DNA from: a virus
Virus genome (UHGV): UHGV-1730239
Strand: one strand, 5' to 3'
Length of the DNA: 14,195 nucleotides
Notes under the pieces: generated by a model
Databases searched by the model: none
Told to the model about the DNA's origin: nothing
Seen by the model: only the letters and a program-made list of their open reading frames with translations
In this document: piece by piece, positions 6,333 to 12,181 of the stretch
How the letters are laid out: each line of letters starts with the position of its first letter
Numbering within the stretch: the first letter of the stretch is position 1
Position numbers and translations under genes: made by a program

Positions 6333-6380
6333 TTACTCCTAAATATTGTTAATCCAATAACAATTAAATAAGGGGTAATT

Positions 6381-6875
6381 ATGAGTTTAGAACTAATTCC
6401 CTTAGTAATTCGTAAAGGCGAAAAAATCACGCTGGCGAATGAAGAGGGTGTAACCATTCAGATAGGAAATAGTAAAGGCATCATTTATCAGGTTGATGAT
6501 ACTCCGGCTAATCACGAGATTAAAACCTTAGATTTTGCCGAAGGTAAATATACCATCGTAACCACGTTGGAAGATGAACTGGTATCAATGCAGGAATTAA
6601 CTGTTTTACCTATTTTTCAGCGTCAATCCAAAAAAGAATATCTGCGGGAAACTATCGCCACTGTCGAGCAAGTTATTTTCGCCCGGCTATCGGGGGATGA
6701 GGCCGCATTATCTCAAATGACAGTGAAAGGGAATACTTTCGCCTATGAGTCATTGGCTGTTCTCCAGCAATTAAAGACTGATTATGAACGTCAGTTATCT
6801 AAATTAATTCAAGCCGAACGACGTAAACAGGGAATTAGCCCGATTAAAAATATTAAAGTACGTCTTACGCGATAA
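6381..6875 (+). CDS. gpW-like head-tail joining protein with ~90-aa N-terminal extension, 164 aa
   Basis: ATG at 6381 with AAGGGG upstream; sits between terminase and portal as lambda W does. The C-terminal ~70 aa (LSGDEAALSQMTVKGNTFAYESLAVLQQLKTDYERQ) resembles my recollection of gpW ([37 protein letters not shown]); the N-terminal part is unrecognised. Confidence 0.5.
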   Translation: MSLELIPLVIRKGEKITLANEEGVTIQIGNSKGIIYQVDDTPANHEIKTLDFAEGKYTIVTTLEDELVSMQELTVLPIFQRQSKKEYLRETIATVEQVIFARLSGDEAALSQMTVKGNTFAYESLAVLQQLKTDYERQLSKLIQAERRKQGISPIKNIKVRLTR

Positions 6876-6885
6876 GGGGTAAATC

Positions 6886-8397
6886 ATGTTTAATCTTTTT
6901 CGACGCAAAAAGGCGGTAGAAACTCCAGTTAAAACTAATCACCGCCAGCAACAACAAAAAATCTTTATCGACAAACAAGTAGAAAAATTCCAGAAAGATT
7001 TGTCTAAGCGTTCTTTGGGCTTAGTCGGTGATCGCATTGATGGACAACTTCAACAAGATACTATCACAGGAACCTTCAATAAGGCTCTCAAATCGAACGG
7101 TAAGCGCCTTTATGATCAGGGTCGTACTCTGGCCTTAAACACTTCCGTAGGCAGTCGCTACACGCAATACATCACCGATATGGTGGTTGGTACTGGTCTA
7201 GATCCGAAGCCGTCAGTTGTTAAATCAAATGGCAAACTTGATAGCGCACTGAATAAGCAGATCGAGAATGCTTTCTGGAAGTGGGCGCAGAATGCTAAAC
7301 GCTTCTCTCGTAACGGTCGCTTTAACTTCCGTGAATTGCTGGTAATGGCTGAACGTGAGCGCGTTATGGGTGGTGAGTGCTTCATAGTTTTAACCAAAGA
7401 AAACAATGAGTTAAATGTTTCTATCCTGTCTGCTGATAAGTGCGACTGGACGCTCAACCGTGAAGTAAGCAAAGAACGCGCTATCTATCAGGGGATCGAG
7501 TATGACGTAGAAACAATGCGCCCTGTTGCATTTTGGTTTCGTAAAATCAACCTACTGACTCAGACTTACACAGGTGATAACTATCGCGTAGATGCTTCGC
7601 AAGTATGCCATTATTATCAACCACTTGCGGCTGAATCTCTGCGTGGTGTGACTGACTTCCTGCCAGTGATCAAGGATATTGCGCATCAAGACGCATTCCG
7701 CGAAACCGCGATCATCCAGAAACGTATTGCAGCTAGCTCTATGGGCTTTATCGAACGTCCGAAAGATTCTGGTGACGATTTTGATACTGGTGAAGAGGAT
7801 GAACAATATCAAGCGCCGGAAGTAGTACAGGATTTTGCACCGGGTACTATTCAGGAATTGCCGGAAGGGGCAACGATTAAATCAATCCAAGCTACTCAAT
7901 CAGGCGATGATTTCAATTCCTTCAATGATGCGATGTTTACTAGCGTATCAATGGGCTTAGGCGTGTTCAAACAGGGCTTAACAGGAGATTGTTCACAAAT
8001 CAACTACTCAGCCGCGCGTTTTGGTGAATTAACTCAACGCACACGAGTTAAAGCACTGCAAAACAAATTGATTGAAACAGTGGTATTGCCAATTTTCGAA
8101 GCGTATCTGCGTCATTATTCCGCGCGTGGCATTGTTCCGATTCGTATTACTGCAATTCCGCATATTATCGACAACACTACTATTATTCGTCCGCGTTTTG
8201 AATCCGTCGATCCTATTAAAGACGTAAACGCTGAAATTGCTTTAATTGATAAAGGACTTAAATCACGTACTGCTGTTATTTTGGAACGTGGCGACGATCC
8301 AGAAAAGGTATTTTCAGAGATCAGGTCTGAATCCAGTGCACTAAATATTATCGTTAATGGTGAGGGTGAAGAAAAAAATTCCCCAGCCGATCCCTAA
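6886..8397 (+). CDS. Portal protein, 503 aa
   Basis: ATG at 6886 with AAGGGG overlapping the upstream stop; portal-typical size and position between terminase and protease/capsid; acidic segment DSGDDFDTGEEDEQY; ends TAA-TAA. Confidence 0.8.
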   Translation: MFNLFRRKKAVETPVKTNHRQQQQKIFIDKQVEKFQKDLSKRSLGLVGDRIDGQLQQDTITGTFNKALKSNGKRLYDQGRTLALNTSVGSRYTQYITDMVVGTGLDPKPSVVKSNGKLDSALNKQIENAFWKWAQNAKRFSRNGRFNFRELLVMAERERVMGGECFIVLTKENNELNVSILSADKCDWTLNREVSKERAIYQGIEYDVETMRPVAFWFRKINLLTQTYTGDNYRVDASQVCHYYQPLAAESLRGVTDFLPVIKDIAHQDAFRETAIIQKRIAASSMGFIERPKDSGDDFDTGEEDEQYQAPEVVQDFAPGTIQELPEGATIKSIQATQSGDDFNSFNDAMFTSVSMGLGVFKQGLTGDCSQINYSAARFGELTQRTRVKALQNKLIETVVLPIFEAYLRHYSARGIVPIRITAIPHIIDNTTIIRPRFESVDPIKDVNAEIALIDKGLKSRTAVILERGDDPEKVFSEIRSESSALNIIVNGEGEEKNSPADP

Positions 8398-8405
8398 TAA
8401 CCAAC

Positions 8406-8422
8406 GGGGGCGCAATGCCCCC
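8406..8422 (+). other. Intergenic hairpin after portal, no U-tract
   Basis: GGGGGC-GCAAT-GCCCCC followed by AATTAATT. Confidence 0.4.
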
Positions 8423-8442
8423 AATTAATTAAAGGTGATTAA

Positions 8443-10446
8443 ATGCTTAAATTTCGCCGCGATCTTAACGGTTACGGTGGAGTTATTAATGAAGGGCATA
8501 ACGATCAATACGAATTTGAAATTGCTTTCTCAAGTACACAGCCTTATCAGCGCCAATTTTGGGATGAGCAAAATCAAGAAATGGTGGTATTAGATGAAAT
8601 TCTGGTACATACACCGGAAGCGGTTGATCTGTCTCGTCTGAATAATAACGCTCCGTTGCTGTTCAATCACAATTTCGATAATCACATTGGTGTAGTTTGT
8701 AACGCTCGAATCGATGCGGATAACGTAGGTCGTGCTCTGGTTAAGTTCTCCAAGCATGGGACTTTGGCTAATGATATTCGTAATAAAGTCATTGAAGGTA
8801 CGATGGAAAAAATTTCGGTCGGCTATGACATTAAAGAGTATCACATCGACTACGCTAAATCGCAACTCATTGTTTCTAAATGGATTCCTCACGAGATTTC
8901 ATGGGTGTCGGTGCCCGCAGACGATACGGTCGGTTTAAATCGCTCTCTAAATACTATCACAGTTAATTTGGAGGCTAAACGCGATATGACTAAAGAACAA
9001 ATCGAAGAAATCAAAGAAGAACAAGAACCCGCTCAGGTTGAAGAAACTCCGGTAGAAGAAAATAAAGAATCGGAAGTAGAAGAAACTCAAGAGCGCCAAG
9101 TTGAAGAGAATGAAGAAAATGAAAATCTCGAAGACGGAAAAGACGCTGAACATCCTGAAAGTGTTGATGATGATAGTTCAACTGTTCGGGAAGCAGAAGA
9201 AGTAAAAGAAGAACGTGAAGCCGCGCCGGTTGAAGAAGAAAAAATCGAAGAAGTGGCTGAACGTTCCGAAGAAGACGAATTAGAAATTCGCGAGATCGCT
9301 CGCGAGCTAAATATTAACGACGAAGAATTAGAACGCGCATTGGCAGTTAAAGACATGACGCCGGAAGCATTCCGCACTAAGGCACTAAATAATCTCGTCA
9401 ATTCTCAACGTAATAACGAACAACAAATTAAGGACTCTAAAATGGAAAAAACTTTTGACCTGAATGCTGTATTTCGCTCTCTGATCGATGGTGACACTCT
9501 GGGTGCTCATGAAGCTGAATATTCCGCGATGGCTGCTACTGCAACTGTACAGCGCGGTCGTGCTGCTCGTAGTGGCTCTGTATTCGTTCCGGCTGCTGCT
9601 CTGCGTGCTGCTGCTGCTGGTAACACTAAAGCTACTCTGGAAGCTGTAACTGATGAAAAACTGCTGACTGAATCCTATGTAGAAATGCTGATGCCTCAGT
9701 CCGTTCTGGGTCGTCTGGGTGTGACTGTCCTGTCTGGCCTGAATAGCCCGATCGCAGTACCAAAAATGACATCTTCTTGTGTTGACGGTTTCGGTTTCGT
9801 TTCGGAGAACGGCGAGGCACCAGAAAATAAAGCAGGTTTCGCAAACGTGAAAATGGCTCCTAAGACTTTCGCAGGGGGCAACCCAATTTCGCGCCTCAGC
9901 CTCAAAACCGTTCCGGGTATCGCAACCCTGATCACTGATCACATGAACAAAGCTGTTCGCATCAAACTGGAACAACTGGTGCTGTCTGATAAAGAAAACG
10001 CTAACGGTCCGAAAGGTCTGATTAAACATCTGGTTGATGCAAGCCGTGTTGAAAAGAAAGCTGCTTTCACCTACAAAGACTTCCTGAAAGAAATCGCAGC
10101 ACTGACTGATGCTGGCGTTCCGGCACAGTCCATCAAATTTGCCATGAGCGGTGCAACTGCTGCTGAACTGGAATCTACCCTGAAAGATAACGGCGTTTCC
10201 GGTTATATCATCGAAAACGGCAAACTGGCTGGTTACGACGTAGTTACTTCTGGTGTTATTCCGGCTGGCCACATCGTTCTGGGTGACTTCTCCGCGATTA
10301 CTATCGGTGAGTGGGGCGGTCTTGAGGTAGATCTGGACGATTCAACCTACCGAGCACAGGGCGCTATCGTTCCGCGTATCTGGGTAGACCTGGACTTCAC
10401 CGTAGTTCAGCCGGAAGCTCTGAAAGTTCTTCATATCTCTGAATGA
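8443..10446 (+). CDS. Single-ORF fusion of prohead protease (HK97 gp4-like), acidic scaffold-like linker and HK97-fold major capsid protein, 667 aa
   Basis: ATG at 8443 with AAAGGTGA upstream. N-terminal ~170 aa carry prohead-protease motifs (LLFNHN..HIGVV, ISVGYD, ISWVSVPADD). Residues ~180-330 are an E/D/K-rich predicted coiled coil. The C-terminal ~335 aa look like an HK97-type capsid protein ending in ...VQPEALKVLHISE. Single TGA stop. Confidence 0.85.
   Translation: MLKFRRDLNGYGGVINEGHNDQYEFEIAFSSTQPYQRQFWDEQNQEMVVLDEILVHTPEAVDLSRLNNNAPLLFNHNFDNHIGVVCNARIDADNVGRALVKFSKHGTLANDIRNKVIEGTMEKISVGYDIKEYHIDYAKSQLIVSKWIPHEISWVSVPADDTVGLNRSLNTITVNLEAKRDMTKEQIEEIKEEQEPAQVEETPVEENKESEVEETQERQVEENEENENLEDGKDAEHPESVDDDSSTVREAEEVKEEREAAPVEEEKIEEVAERSEEDELEIREIARELNINDEELERALAVKDMTPEAFRTKALNNLVNSQRNNEQQIKDSKMEKTFDLNAVFRSLIDGDTLGAHEAEYSAMAATATVQRGRAARSGSVFVPAAALRAAAAGNTKATLEAVTDEKLLTESYVEMLMPQSVLGRLGVTVLSGLNSPIAVPKMTSSCVDGFGFVSENGEAPENKAGFANVKMAPKTFAGGNPISRLSLKTVPGIATLITDHMNKAVRIKLEQLVLSDKENANGPKGLIKHLVDASRVEKKAAFTYKDFLKEIAALTDAGVPAQSIKFAMSGATAAELESTLKDNGVSGYIIENGKLAGYDVVTSGVIPAGHIVLGDFSAITIGEWGGLEVDLDDSTYRAQGAIVPRIWVDLDFTVVQPEALKVLHISE
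9442..10446 (+). CDS. Candidate nested product: major capsid protein alone, from an internal in-frame start (334 aa)
   Basis: In-frame ATG at 9442 with AAGGA 7 nt upstream; from here codon usage switches by eye to the highly-expressed style (ctg, cgt, ggt, gct, tcc). A second in-frame ATG at 8986 has GGAGG 11 nt upstream. Confidence 0.4.
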   Translation: MEKTFDLNAVFRSLIDGDTLGAHEAEYSAMAATATVQRGRAARSGSVFVPAAALRAAAAGNTKATLEAVTDEKLLTESYVEMLMPQSVLGRLGVTVLSGLNSPIAVPKMTSSCVDGFGFVSENGEAPENKAGFANVKMAPKTFAGGNPISRLSLKTVPGIATLITDHMNKAVRIKLEQLVLSDKENANGPKGLIKHLVDASRVEKKAAFTYKDFLKEIAALTDAGVPAQSIKFAMSGATAAELESTLKDNGVSGYIIENGKLAGYDVVTSGVIPAGHIVLGDFSAITIGEWGGLEVDLDDSTYRAQGAIVPRIWVDLDFTVVQPEALKVLHISE

Positions 10447-10575
10447 ACTAACGTAGAACCTTCTGTTCCTTCCCCCGATTTGGGGGAAGAAAATCTGATT
10501 CCTGAACCGGAAGAAGATTCCCAGACGGTTACGGCGAAAGCCACAGTTAAAAAACAACGTAAAACTAAAGAATAA
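10447..10575 (+). other. 42-codon in-frame extension beyond the capsid UGA stop (candidate read-through product), ending TAA-TAA
   Basis: After TGA (10444-10446) the same frame stays open for 42 sense codons (TNVEPSVPSPDLGEENLIPEPEEDSQTVTAKATVKKQRKTKE) to tandem TAA-TAA (10573-10578). An 8-bp hairpin CTTCCCCC-GATTT-GGGGGAAG sits at 10469-10489. Confidence 0.35.
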
Positions 10576-10580
10576 TAATT

Positions 10581-10608
10581 AGCCCTGCCTTAACGGTGGG
10601 GCTTTTTT
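10581..10608 (+). terminator. Rho-independent terminator after the capsid gene and its extension
   Basis: ~9-bp stem (AGCCCTGCC / GGTGGGGCT, two G-U pairs) with 5-nt loop, then TTTTTT (10603-10608). Confidence 0.75.
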
Positions 10609-10638
10609 GTATGTAAATACTCCATAAAGGGGGTAACT

Positions 10639-10929
10639 ATGTTCAAATTATCAGAATCACAATTATCAAGAATGTTTAAAAGTGCTCCTGTATTTTCGGT
10701 GGAAGGTGGTAAATCAATTCGTGCTTACCATGAATTTACTACTACCGACGAACAAGGGGTAATTACAGAATCAGAATTTCTATTCTGTCGTGAGGGAGAC
10801 TTAAATCAGGGTGATGTTGTCATTGTAGACGGTGAACGCTTCAAAGTTCAATACGTTAAGCGCAATGGTGATAATACTTCTGATTGCTTTATTGCTCGTG
10901 CGGGGGGTACACATGCTCGCTACCGTTAA
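10639..10929 (+). CDS. Small virion protein, putative head completion/head-tail connector, 96 aa
   Basis: ATG at 10639 with AAAGGGGG upstream; first gene after the capsid terminator. Function inferred from position only. Confidence 0.5.
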   Translation: MFKLSESQLSRMFKSAPVFSVEGGKSIRAYHEFTTTDEQGVITESEFLFCREGDLNQGDVVIVDGERFKVQYVKRNGDNTSDCFIARAGGTHARYR

Positions 10930-11335
10930 TAACATGCCGAGACTGAAAATCAAACGCGCCTTGCAAGATATTATTGAACAAGATTTAGGTCTGGCTTTAA
11001 ACGTAGAACAAACTCAGCAAGGCTTTAGTGATGATGTGGTTTGTTGGATTATTGGCATGAATGAAACTTACACTAGGGTCCGTGGCGGTAATGCAATGCA
11101 AGCTGAATGTGTTATCGAAATGCAGTTGTATTCTCAGAATCATGAAACCAAAATTCATGAGGGTATTTGCCAGATAATCCAGATTCAGCCGGATAATCCA
11201 CGTTTTAAAGATTTGGGCTTCTCTATTTCAGATATCACTCCAGTAGCTTCTAATACCGATTATGACGATGATTCTAGTGATGGGGGTATCGTTGGGACAC
11301 TTAGCCTTAAATTTTCTTATCTAGCGCGTTTTTAA
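10913..11335 (+). CDS. Small virion protein, putative neck/tail-joining, ~140 aa
   Basis: The listed ORF begins at GTG 10832 inside the previous gene; the first SD-preceded start is ATG 10913 (GGGGGG 5 nt upstream), overlapping the upstream gene by 17 nt. Another in-frame ATG at 10934 lies 4 nt past the upstream stop. Acidic C-terminus. Confidence 0.5.
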   Translation: MLATVNNMPRLKIKRALQDIIEQDLGLALNVEQTQQGFSDDVVCWIIGMNETYTRVRGGNAMQAECVIEMQLYSQNHETKIHEGICQIIQIQPDNPRFKDLGFSISDITPVASNTDYDDDSSDGGIVGTLSLKFSYLARF

Positions 11336-11344
11336 GGGGTAATA

Positions 11345-12181
11345 ATGAATATTACACAAGATAACTTAGACATTTTCACGGGGTCGCATGTTGAATTATC
11401 CATTTCTACGAATATTGATGCTGAACCTAGTTTTTTCGATCCGTCATTCTCTACTGTAGAGAATCTGGCGTCGTTTCCTACCATCTCGTTTAGCAATGAG
11501 ATTGAGACATTGGAAGAATATAATTCTGATGTTACGGCAAAATTACGCGGTGGACGCAAGATCGAAAATACAAACTTGAGTCTCTATCGTGTCATTAACG
11601 ATGAACATCAAGAGCTATTAAATCAGGCTGTACTAAGCAAGCAATTGCTCCGCTTCCGAGTGTTTTATGTGATCGATACTGACCAGAATACAAGCGGTCA
11701 GACGGGCTATTATGTTTTGTATGATGCCTATGTCACTAGCGCCAAAACAAAGGGAAGTGATACCAGCGCGGTTACTGTTGAGTATCGATTAGAACCGGAA
11801 GGAAGTGTGTTGTTAGACGGGATCGCAACTCAAGGGCGCGTCTTGCGGGAGGGTGACTTCGGTATCGGTGCTGGCGTTGGTGTTTTCCCTGGTGTTATTG
11901 ATAGCGAATCTCTATCTGGAAACCGCTTCGTAACGTATAAGGGAACAGTTAGTTCCAACCCGTTCGGTGCTGACACTACAATGATCAGCCTACAGCCTAA
12001 TGAAGATGGTGGATGGCAATTAACTAGCTCGGTAACTGGCAATCCTCGTTTGCGTGTCCGCACTATCCAAAAAGATGGTGCTACCGGATGGTTTAAAGTT
12101 TACACATCGGCTGAAAAACCAACCGCCGCAGATGTTGGGGCAGTGTCGCTAACTGCACGCGTGGACTTTGGCGAGTATTAA
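11345..12181 (+). CDS. Virion structural protein, putative tail tube/adaptor, 278 aa
   Basis: ATG at 11345 with AAGGGG upstream; Gly-rich segment GDFGIGAGVGVFPGV; lies between the small connector-like genes and the tail fibre. No family recognised. Confidence 0.5.
   Translation: MNITQDNLDIFTGSHVELSISTNIDAEPSFFDPSFSTVENLASFPTISFSNEIETLEEYNSDVTAKLRGGRKIENTNLSLYRVINDEHQELLNQAVLSKQLLRFRVFYVIDTDQNTSGQTGYYVLYDAYVTSAKTKGSDTSAVTVEYRLEPEGSVLLDGIATQGRVLREGDFGIGAGVGVFPGVIDSESLSGNRFVTYKGTVSSNPFGADTTMISLQPNEDGGWQLTSSVTGNPRLRVRTIQKDGATGWFKVYTSAEKPTAADVGAVSLTARVDFGEY

Follow-up and report, generated by a model that had tools for sequence, protein, structure and literature searches.

In an E. coli prophage (strain 2014EL-1346-6), the gene for the head shell encodes a prohead protease, a scaffold-like region and the major capsid protein in one uninterrupted frame. 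It contains two internal in-frame ATG codons preceded by SD sequences, and the second of these coincides with a step in codon usage. The conserved start signals and the codon step suggest that, besides the full-length protein, the gene also makes shorter and more abundant versions of it. We consider it fairly probable that three co-terminal nested proteins are translated from one late mRNA of this S78 fusion gene. The fusion itself is not new, being both curated and published; judged from its sequence, the gene is of a known type, with a probable new form of lambda C/Nu3-style nesting. Positions (Table 1) are counted in the window, i.e., the whole stretch of 14,195 nucleotides of viral DNA (UHGV-1730239) that was analysed.

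Table 1. Features of the fused gene and its surroundings, in order of position in the window.
Feature	Position	Strand	Details
GC-rich hairpin between portal stop codon and RBS of the fused gene	8405..8423	+	RNA folding
SD of the full-length ORF (AAGGTGA; 4-nt spacer to ATG 8443)	8432..8438	+	anti-SD duplex −4.3 kcal/mol
Fused prohead protease – scaffold – major capsid protein ORF	8443..10446	+	667 aa, 73.5 kDa
S78 (HK97 gp4-type) prohead protease domain, aa 21–160	8503..8922	+	PF04586; AF2 pLDDT 76–91
Candidate catalytic residues H76, S125 and E151	8668–8670, 8815–8817, 8893–8895	+	conservation
Acidic linker, predicted disordered, aa 171–272	8953..9258	+	AF2 pLDDT <30
Internal start site 1 (candidate): GGAGG 8970–8974, 11-nt spacer, ATG 8986–8988 (codon 182)	8970..8988	+	
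Helical scaffold-like segment, aa 276–330, three predicted helices	9268..9432	+	AF2
Internal start site 2 (candidate): AAGGA 9430–9434, 7-nt spacer, ATG 9442–9444 (codon 334)	9430..9444	+	
Conserved N-terminal segment of the capsid module, aa 334–398	9442..9636	+	homology to R4C capsid
HK97-fold major capsid protein core, aa 399–667	9637..10443	+	predicted mature protein ~28.5 kDa
Intrinsic terminator after the capsid ORF	10581..10609	+	9-bp stem, 6 GC pairs, then TTTTTT; −17.1 kcal/mol

Domain architecture of the fused gene product

The ORF begins with an ATG immediately 3′ of an in-frame TAA, has no internal stop codon and lies directly 3′ of the portal gene, as in other fusion genes. Its product is labelled 'phage major capsid protein' in RefSeq (WP_097739970.1). 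As the sequence-only reading had stated, three modules share the one 667-codon frame, in which both Peptidase_S78 (PF04586, aa 40–162, E 1.7e-9) and Phage_capsid (PF05065, aa 409–664, E 1.3e-26) were detected with Pfam. The PHROG 617 profile matched end to end (aa 23–663, profile positions 26–621 of 626, E 3.4e-88). TIGR01543 matched the protease domain with an E of 1.3e-7, a match too weak to reach the cut-off of that model, and TIGR01554 matched the capsid part with 56.1 bits, exceeding its cut-off of 27.5 bits. The three candidate catalytic residues are invariant in 29 lineages and 32 database homologues.

Structure prediction agreed with the assignment of both terminal modules. The protease domain was modelled by AF2 with the confidence given in Table 1, the capsid core with a pLDDT of mostly 72–92, and the best Foldseek matches of the core were the capsids of 8GTA, HK97, D3 and GTA (E 1e-18 to 1e-11); phmmer aligned the capsid part with 8GTA_A (E 1e-25). 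The module in between (aa 182–333) holds most of the acidic linker, contains 46 Glu among its 152 residues and had no match in PHROG. The helices predicted towards its end (276–289, 293–301 and 307–330, pLDDT 62–74) suggest that the segment of aa 276–330 may act as a scaffold.

Chain A of PDB entry 8GTA, the R4C capsid chain, comprises residues 362–629 of the R4C protein, and its first residue aligns with residue ~399 of the window protein. The mature N-terminus is therefore placed near residue 399. The segment before it (aa 334–398) carries the motif (Y/F)SL..A.RA...ARG..VP, which is kept in distant homologues, and is probably a propeptide or delta-like segment that is absent from or disordered in the mature shell. 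An antisense ORF of 295 aa (9385–10272) was dismissed as a by-product of biased codons.

Relatives of the fused gene

The fusion had been taken in the sequence-only reading as a departure from HK97 and lambda, which did not hold. The same layout of S78 domain, variable linker and HK97 fold is represented by PHROG 617/4523 and by NCBIfam NF045541 ('prohead protease/major capsid protein fusion protein', scaf_prot_MCP2). Examples are Vibrio VP882, Halomonas phiHAP-1, Escherichia ep3, Rhodobacter RcCronus and the RcC phages, Dinoroseobacter R4C and Xanthomonas Murka, whose product is annotated as 'major capsid protein and protease'. NF045541 scored 126.7 bits against a cut-off of 525 and matched aa 22–346 only, which indicates the same architecture class and a lineage other than that of the model. 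The fusion was found in 29 of 29 sampled lineages, to which the window protein is 22–44% identical; the closest database phage is DCP80 with 46% identity. When compared with the phage collection by megablast, the ORF returned no match, and for the whole window the sole match was a T5-like tail-fibre segment. Stx2 phages were rejected as carriers of such a fusion, since the coat protein of Sp5 is P22/N4-like and a protease is lacking there.

The open frame could in principle stem from a sequencing or assembly error that deleted a stop codon or a frameshift between separate protease and capsid genes. This explanation was rejected, its probability being practically nil: the identical uninterrupted frame is present in 10 further complete E. 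coli chromosomes, none of which has a stop or frameshift between protease and capsid, in almost all of 80 IMG/VR loci (retrieved with a four-sequence alignment), in 8 cultured phages and in >2,000 database proteins with both Pfam domains. The prophage family is carried by 55 of 5,426 complete genomes.

A full-text literature search found no description of internal starts in fused protease-capsid genes. A paper on fused genes notes merely the fusion of capsid and protease, and the R4C paper ignores the N-terminal part.

Flanking signals and the annotated start

When the SDs of seven gene starts in the window were compared, that of the full-length start proved the weakest; the remaining ones range from −6.1 to −12.0 kcal/mol, and four of these share TAAGGGGTA-N3-ATG (−8.4 to −12.0 kcal/mol). 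The hairpin upstream of the full-length start has a 6-bp stem inside a −15.4 kcal/mol structure of 8398–8445 and was detected as resembling a terminator when read on the minus strand; in several other lineages a hairpin or terminator-like element is found at the equivalent place before the fused gene. An internal promoter as the origin of a shorter product is unsupported, as no promoter-like site could be found within the ORF (8443–10446).

Candidate internal translation start sites

The two internal SD-ATG combinations pointed out in the sequence-only reading could be read directly from the DNA. They are the only ones among 11 internal in-frame ATGs whose anti-SD duplex reaches −5 kcal/mol (−9.3 kcal/mol for site 1 and −5.8 kcal/mol for site 2), a strength that is attained at 5.7% of all positions. 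Because ~0.6 such ATGs are expected, SD strength alone is weak evidence, and the significance comes from the comparative data. Both sites lie in the least-structured local mRNA of the ORF, with an MFE of −3.2 at site 1 and −2.6 at site 2, the lowest degree of structure of all in-frame ATGs; the other in-frame ATGs range from −7.8 to −18.4, and the mean of the ORF is −10.3. The predicted products are 486 aa (52.9 kDa) from ATG 8986 and 334 aa (35.2 kDa) from ATG 9442. The spacer of site 1 exceeds the optimum.

The ATG of site 1 is located 15 codons past the conserved G.GR motif that ends the protease. Lineages with <60% identity (29 in total) were surveyed for an in-frame ATG with an SD of −5 kcal/mol or stronger, 10–34 codons after G.GR. 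An equivalent of site 1 was found in 18 of the 29, with 1.9 expected (binomial P ~1e-14), and an SD precedes 18 of the 26 in-frame ATGs of this region, where SDs have a density of 16.5% (P = 3e-9); both P values are too small, because the lineages are phylogenetically non-independent. The SD is built from different codons and encodes different peptides in each lineage, and the other two frames gave no SD-ATG match in this region. Site 1 is missing from 7–11 lineages. The Glu/Lys-rich linker has a ~3-fold higher density of SD-like strings, and 51 codons before the anchor the conserved peptide ExEVxxM creates an SD-ATG mimic in six related lineages. Among the E. coli copies, the ATG is kept in 10 of 11 and GGAGG in 9 of 11.

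Site 2 is conserved as AAGGA-N7-ATG in all 11 E. coli copies, with a spacer that encodes either DSK or EQI (KDSKM vs. KEQIM), and an SD-preceded ATG is present at the M334 position in 32 of 32 close IMG/VR loci scored. It also occurs in four distant low-GC lineages (L064, L067, L068 and L071; 28–34% identity). Across the lineages, site 2 is present in ~8/29 and site 1 is far commoner. Both sites together are present in the window family and in L068 and L071 (~29% identity). The M334-equivalent positions of DCP80, VP882, ep3, HAP1, Cronus, Mano, Murka and R4C have no conserved SD-ATG; site 2 is therefore lineage-restricted. Most high-GC lineages have neither site 2 nor a codon step, and an SD-ATG is found at neither site in Mano, Murka, L077, L073 and L066. 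Nesting is thus not a general feature of these genes, and a phage can evidently manage with the full-length product alone.

It is quite unlikely that this phage relies on just one of the two internal starts. If only 9442 were used, site 1 would be a decaying, badly spaced remnant. In line with this are its 11-nt spacer, its loss or weakening in L003 (no ATG) and L012 (GGGGG in place of GGAGG), and the unoptimised codons of the scaffold region (182–333; see below), which argue that few ribosomes start at 8986. If only 8986 were used, the product would be a scaffold-capsid protein of the lambda C/Nu3 kind, and the motif at 9442 and the codon step would be caused otherwise; the much wider conservation of site 1 points in this direction. 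Against both versions stand the joint retention of the two sites in the window family, L068 and L071 and the position of both in the least-structured mRNA of the ORF.

The SD-like motifs might also act not as starts, but as elongation pause sites at domain boundaries that aid co-translational folding. They are located exactly at predicted boundaries, namely the ends of the protease domain and of helix 307–330. Pausing at SD sequences is itself a disputed effect. Moreover, an ATG is unnecessary for pausing, yet in 18 lineages the SD stands at a start-like distance from an in-frame ATG, and no out-of-frame ATG is combined with one, and the codon-usage step would be left unexplained, which makes this explanation very improbable.

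Codon usage along the ORF

The fraction of E. coli optimal codons rises from 0.49 (aa 1–181) to 0.67 (aa 182–333) and 0.81 (aa 334–667), and CTG accounts for 5/14, 0/7 and 27/31 of the Leu codons in these parts, respectively. Within aa 182–333, Asn is encoded nine times by AAT and twice by AAC. A single unsupervised change-point was placed best at codons 331–347 (nt 9433–9481) with a log Bayes factor of 10.4, which was reached by 0 of 300 synonymous-codon shuffles (mean −2.7, maximum 6.4), confirming the codon switch that the sequence-only reading had placed at 9442. In 29 of 32 close IMG/VR family members the best change-point lies at codons 317–344. The E. coli phage DCP80 has its step elsewhere, namely at site 1 (codon 177, log Bayes factor 13.6); upstream of its M180 lies AATAAGGAAAAAcgaATG, which is nearly identical to the RBS at the annotated start of the DCP80 gene.

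The highest optimal-codon fraction of the ORF (0.82–0.95) is found in aa 334–398. The optimised codons thus start at M334, 65 codons ahead of the predicted mature N-terminus, and therefore track a candidate translation start. For the same reason, it was rejected that codon optimisation follows the part retained in the virion.

A further explanation is that only the polyprotein is made: all chains would start at AUG 8443, the three modules would be present 1:1:1 and process themselves, and the internal SD-ATGs would be unused, either as relics of an ancestral junction of protease and capsid genes or as by-products of the Glu/Lys-rich linker with its enrichment of SD-like strings. The step would then reflect a mosaic ancestry of the capsid module. 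Such an ancestry is consistent with the synonymous diversity of the family, which is near zero in codons 161–336 and shifts at ~codon 336, where the codon step starts; this shift resembles a recombination junction and could contribute to the step. A module exchange at the protease/scaffold boundary is seen in L003, and the lineages without SD-ATG (Mano, Murka, L077, L073 and L066), as well as the absence of a codon step from most high-GC lineages, fit a polyprotein too. As codons 161–336 have nearly no diversity, synonymous-site conservation around the starts in 41 family members is uninformative.

Several observations speak against expression of the polyprotein only, which we consider unlikely. 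A relic would hardly last in 18 of 29 lineages at 22–44% identity, rebuilt from other codons and always in frame. Within E. coli hosts, the divergence of the protease part is similar to that of the capsid part, yet the protease codons are not optimised. In DCP80, a step of separate origin is found at an internal SD-ATG of that gene, and the optimisation in the window begins at M334 and not at the mature N-terminus. Finally, one would not expect the most abundant protein of the virion to depend entirely on a start with an SD as weak as that at 8443.

Proposed expression of nested products

From these features we infer that the internal AUGs are used, and how the products would differ in yield, co-assemble and be cleaved. 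The full-length 73.5-kDa chain, starting at AUG 8443 with its weak SD, would be a minor species that brings the protease into the prohead by co-assembly of its own capsid domain into the shell. AUG 8986 would give rise to a 52.9-kDa scaffold-capsid chain, a counterpart of Nu3 within lambda C that stays attached to the capsid protein. The major product would be the 35.2-kDa chain from AUG 9442, composed of the conserved N-terminal segment of ~65 residues and the capsid core. Owing to the relative strengths of the three initiation regions, there would be fewer copies of protease and scaffold than of the shell subunit. Once assembly is complete, the three chains would be cut down by the protease to a single mature species of ~28.5 kDa that begins at about residue 399.

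Three nested products had already been proposed in the sequence-only reading and gained substantial comparative support from the 18 of 29 lineages and the 11 of 11 E. coli copies. The third one is not 'capsid alone', as had been claimed, since a segment of ~65 residues precedes the predicted mature start at ~399 (8GTA). In sum, the earlier interpretation was partly supported: the modules, the SD-ATGs and the codon step stood, whereas the fusion as a departure and the 'capsid alone' product had to be given up.

Comparison with known systems

In lambda C/Nu3, Mu I/Z and herpesvirus UL26/UL26.5, initiation at an in-frame codon where the protease ends produces large amounts of a co-terminal scaffold, and the full-length protein is the minor protease. 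Site 1 matches lambda C/Nu3 in logic and position, with an in-frame SD and AUG just past the protease. In these systems the capsid gene is separate, whereas the nested products of the window would stay fused to the capsid protein, as there is no stop before 10444. A further difference is the second nested start, with a candidate product that lacks both the protease and the long scaffold.

HK97 gp4 and gp5 share the protease family and the capsid fold with the window protein. Gp5, consisting of delta domain and capsid, resembles the predicted products of AUG 8986 or 9442, with an N-terminal assembly segment that is later cut off. In HK97 a stop codon separates gp4 and gp5 and gp4 is recruited non-covalently; in the single ORF of the window, without such a stop, the protease would be covalently attached to some of the capsid subunits.

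The Gifsy-2 capsid reportedly uses a lambda gpD-like decoration protein. Its tripartite gene likewise unites protease, a central scaffold-like region of ~200 residues and capsid protein (Effantin et al., 2010, Virology 402:355, as cited in PMC12315714 and PMC8538268). The protease is of the unrelated ClpP/S49 type (annotated as Clp protease), whereas that of the window belongs to Peptidase_S78. A scan of the Gifsy-2 gene revealed GAGGAG-N6-ATG where protease and scaffold meet, at the point of the gene with the least mRNA structure; a codon-usage step and a second internal site were absent.

Implications for fused capsid genes

According to the searchable literature, the evidence for internal initiation in fused protease-capsid genes is the new part, and the fusion was known. 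Fused genes are annotated merely as 'major capsid protein', and capsid studies ignore the N-terminal two-thirds. A strict 1:1:1 polyprotein would bring ~415 proteases and scaffolds into each T = 7 shell. We lean, by a little, towards the view that fused genes broadly, including the ClpP-type Gifsy-2 gene, are nested in-frame sets, in which scaffold-capsid chains (and, in enterobacterial low-GC lineages, also short-propeptide capsid chains) exceed the full-length protein, the strengths of the starts set the stoichiometry and a minority of subunits carry the protease.

As the present case suggests, a codon-usage step within an ORF may flag hidden internal initiation. If conserved nested starts are indeed used, they would be a simple and testable answer to the control of the protease-to-capsid ratio, a question that has existed since the tripartite gene of Gifsy-2. 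The principle of lambda C/Nu3 and herpesvirus UL26/UL26.5 would then extend to the capsid protein itself. Fused genes would have to be annotated as three products instead of one, and their expression for the production of capsids and virus-like particles would be altered.

Genomic setting of the fused gene

E. coli O6:H16 strain 2014EL-1346-6 carries in its chromosome a prophage with 100% identity to the window, and there the ORF bears the annotation 'phage major capsid protein'. Related copies with 86-90% nucleotide identity were found in 55 of 5,426 complete E. coli genomes. The ORF is preceded by genes for a lambda gpA-type large terminase, a 164-aa ORF and a lambda-family portal, and is followed by three small ORFs and then tail-fibre genes. 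Upon re-reading of the sequence, all coordinates that the sequence-only reading had given for the ORF, its internal ATGs and their Shine-Dalgarno (SD) sequences proved exact. A sequencing artefact behind the open frame is excluded.

Features of the fused capsid gene and its surroundings
Feature	Position	Strand	Description
Fused protease-scaffold-capsid ORF	8443-10446	+	667 codons, starts right after an in-frame TAA, stop-free inside
Site 1	ATG 8986, codon 182	+	GGAGG 8970-8974, spacer 11 nt
Site 2	ATG 9442, codon 334	+	AAGGA 9430-9434, spacer 7 nt
GC-rich hairpin	8405-8423		between portal stop codon and RBS of the fused gene
Unusual RBS of structural genes	6367-6381, 6872-6886, 10625-10639, 11331-11345		TAAGGGGTA + 3 nt + ATG
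Promoter-like site	10547-10576		directly 5' of the terminator
Intrinsic terminator	10581-10609		~135 nt 3' of the capsid ORF; 9-bp stem, 6 GC pairs, T6; strong
Antisense ORF	9385-10272	-	295 aa
Tail-fibre segment	13425-13662		~80% nucleotide identity to N-terminal domain of T5-like tail-fibre genes (T5_ev219, VSe12, NG_A1)

No sigma-70-like promoter was found within the ORF; the sole promoter-like site of the region lies downstream of it. The hairpin 5' of the fused gene might act in partial termination, in processing or in stabilising the mRNA. In seven compared loci (L053, L058, L063, L076, L086, L093 and L013, the last being phage DCP80), the same place is taken by a hairpin or terminator-like element, followed in some by a T-run, and the lineages with such an element include several unrelated ones. 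The antisense ORF, wholly inside the codon-optimised capsid part, was rejected as a gene and is most likely a by-product of biased codon usage. Megablast of the whole window against the phage collection matched the tail-fibre segment alone, which suggests a recent exchange of the fibre module.

Domains and classification of the fusion

Pfam domains Peptidase_S78 (HK97 gp4 type) and Phage_capsid were detected at aa 40-162 and 409-664. A match to PHROG 617 spans aa 23-663, PHROG 4523 bears the name 'major head and protease protein', and NCBIfam NF045541 ('prohead protease/major capsid protein fusion protein') matched with a score under the model's cut-off. Structure prediction bore out the protease and capsid modules read from the sequence. 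In an AlphaFold model computed from 32 sequences, the protease domain (aa 21-160) and the capsid core are confident, the acidic linker (aa 171-272) is disordered, three helices lie at aa 276-330 and aa 336-400 are moderately confident; Foldseek groups the core with the capsid proteins of R4C, HK97, D3 and GTA. Since His76, Ser125 and Glu151 are invariant across 29 lineages, the S78 protease is probably active.

tblastn recovered the same two-domain gene from 79 phage records, those of VP882, phiHAP-1, ep3, RcCronus, R4C, Mano and Murka among them, and it is one ORF directly 3' of the portal gene in all eight records inspected. Searches at E ≤ 1e-10 and E ≤ 1e-5 each matched over 2,200 database proteins, with both Pfam domains in all matches listed. 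Fused protease and coat genes are recorded for Gifsy-2 (Effantin et al., 2010, as cited in PMC12315714) and for Rhodobacter RcC phages (PMC8601537). The fusion in one frame was therefore upheld, whereas its presumed departure from HK97 and lambda describes a known class, of which the window's gene is a new member.

Candidate internal translation starts

ATG 9442 with AAGGA-N7 is invariant in 11 of 11 E. coli copies, the spacer encoding DSK or EQI by copy (AAG GAC TCT AAA vs AAG GAA CAA ATC); ATG 8986 is present in 10 and GGAGG in nine of them. All 32 close IMG/VR loci scored have an SD-preceded ATG at both sites. Locus L003 (NZ_CP122872.1, 1997-5103) carries a different protease module joined at the protease/scaffold boundary, lacks the site 1 ATG and has an additional 1-kb hypothetical ORF between portal and capsid genes, which is evidence that modules were exchanged right at the domain boundary. 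The gene copies of L002 (NZ_CP124819.1) and H47 (NZ_OW848980.1) are truncated or IS-interrupted (IS3 family after codon ~520; IS903B), and such prophages appear to be decaying in some hosts.

Both sites are little structured: 60-nt windows fold at -3.2 kcal/mol at 8986 and -2.6 at 9442, compared with -7.8 to -18.4 at other in-frame ATGs and an ORF mean of -10.3. The SD duplex of the annotated start (-4.3 kcal/mol) is the weakest among the window's seven measured gene starts. The remaining six range from -6.1 to -12.0 kcal/mol, and four of these share TAAGGGGTA-N3-ATG, which is absent from the fused gene.

For a wider survey, 80 viral loci and cultured phages were clustered at <60% identity into 29 lineages and anchored at the conserved G.GR motif ending the protease domain (window R167); for some metagenomic ORFs the start codon was set by rule. 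In 18 lineages, among them VP882, phiHAP-1, RcCronus, R4C and ep3, an in-frame ATG with an SD of ≤ -5 kcal/mol lies 10-34 codons past the anchor, against ~1.9 expected from background (binomial P ~1e-14, lineages not independent). An SD precedes 18 of the 26 in-frame ATGs of this interval, compared with 16.5% of local positions (P = 3e-9, lineages again not independent), and none of its out-of-frame ATGs in the lineages surveyed. The SD codons and peptides differ by lineage (AAG GAA, GAA GGA, AAA GGA, ATG GAG GTT, AGA AAG GAG, GTG AGG AGC, TTG GAG GCT). SD-mediated pausing, which would leave the obligatory in-frame ATG unexplained, is highly improbable as their function. The published tripartite gene of Gifsy-2 (L102), whose ClpP-type protease is unrelated to S78, likewise has an internal SD-ATG at the protease/scaffold boundary: GAGGAG-N6-ATG at codon 221 (L102 8117-8134; record ~23116-23133), its least structured in-frame ATG (-6.0 kcal/mol, others -9 to -23).

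Site 2 lies in a motif K[D/E]xxx-M-E-[K/N], 3-4 residues ahead of a conserved F/Y-S-L motif. With AAGGA it occurs in the window's family and four lineages (28-34% identity, 39-41% GC), and in the DCP80 group and L053 an SD-ATG lies 7-16 codons upstream of its position. Corrected for local SD density, the signal is only moderately significant (8/16, P = 0.004). L053, L064 and L067 have site 2 and no site 1; that just one of the two starts is functional in the window is quite unlikely. DCP80 (PQ671644.1, 1.7-10.9 kb) is the closest phage-database relative of the lambda-like head module; its 141-kb record, classed as Straboviridae (Gaprivervirus), looks chimeric or mis-assembled.

Codon usage

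E. coli optimal codons make up a fraction of 0.49 of the protease part, 0.67 of the Glu-rich linker and 0.81 of the stretch from M334 on. The linker uses non-optimal codons for Leu, Asn and Gln (CTG 0/7; AAT 9 vs AAC 2), and downstream of M334 27 of 31 Leu codons are CTG. Unsupervised change-point analysis recovered the switch proposed at ATG 9442, placing it within codons 331-347 with a log Bayes factor of 10.4, a strength reached by none of 300 synonymous-codon shuffles (maximum 6.4). Among close IMG/VR relatives, 29 of 32 show it again, at codons 317-344. In DCP80, an E. coli phage and the nearest cultured relative (46% identity), the step is equally strong (log Bayes factor 13.6) and falls on the protease/scaffold boundary, at codon 177; none was found in seven more distant, mostly high-GC phages, and the optimal-codon sets hold for enteric hosts only.

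Among 41 family members, synonymous diversity is 0.00-0.06 over most of the scaffold block (codons 161-336, 8923-9450) and 0.1-0.4 in the capsid part, which could reflect a recent sweep, block recombination or selection on the RNA sequence. In a synonymous-rate test, this near-zero diversity leaves local dips at the internal starts invisible. The recombination-like boundary at ~codon 336, the richness of the linker in SD-like strings and the lineages without either internal site would suit a polyprotein, with the full-length chain as sole translation product. This is unlikely, as it leaves unexplained the frame-specific, codon-independent conservation of the internal SD-ATGs, the DCP80 codon step and the weak first SD.

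Predicted products and proposed expression model

Among solved structures, the R4C capsid alone is similar in sequence to the fused protein; its chain (8GTA chain A, 268 aa, R4C residues 362-629) has a first residue that aligns to window residue 399. Since this chain lacks residues 334-398, which are conserved in all distant homologues, the AUG 9442 product would be a 35.2-kDa precursor with an N-terminal segment of ~65 residues, not the capsid alone as first proposed; the mature protein is predicted at ~28.5 kDa. The codon step, starting 65 codons ahead of the inferred mature N-terminus, does not simply follow the virion-retained part.

At least one internal start is probably used. We regard as fairly likely a nested scheme in which one mRNA with three in-frame starts would yield a minor full-length chain, an intermediate amount of scaffold-capsid chain and, as major product, a short-propeptide capsid chain. 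The capsid domain common to the three chains would let them co-assemble, and the S78 protease would then cut off everything N-terminal of ~residue 399.

A full-text literature search, with subscription journals mostly outside its coverage, yielded no description of nested expression of fused capsid genes. Lambda C/Nu3, Mu I/Z and herpesvirus UL26/UL26.5 are known nested-gene systems. The expression strategy we infer for the window is alike, but unlike in these systems the nested products would remain fused to the capsid protein, and two nested starts are possible in one gene.
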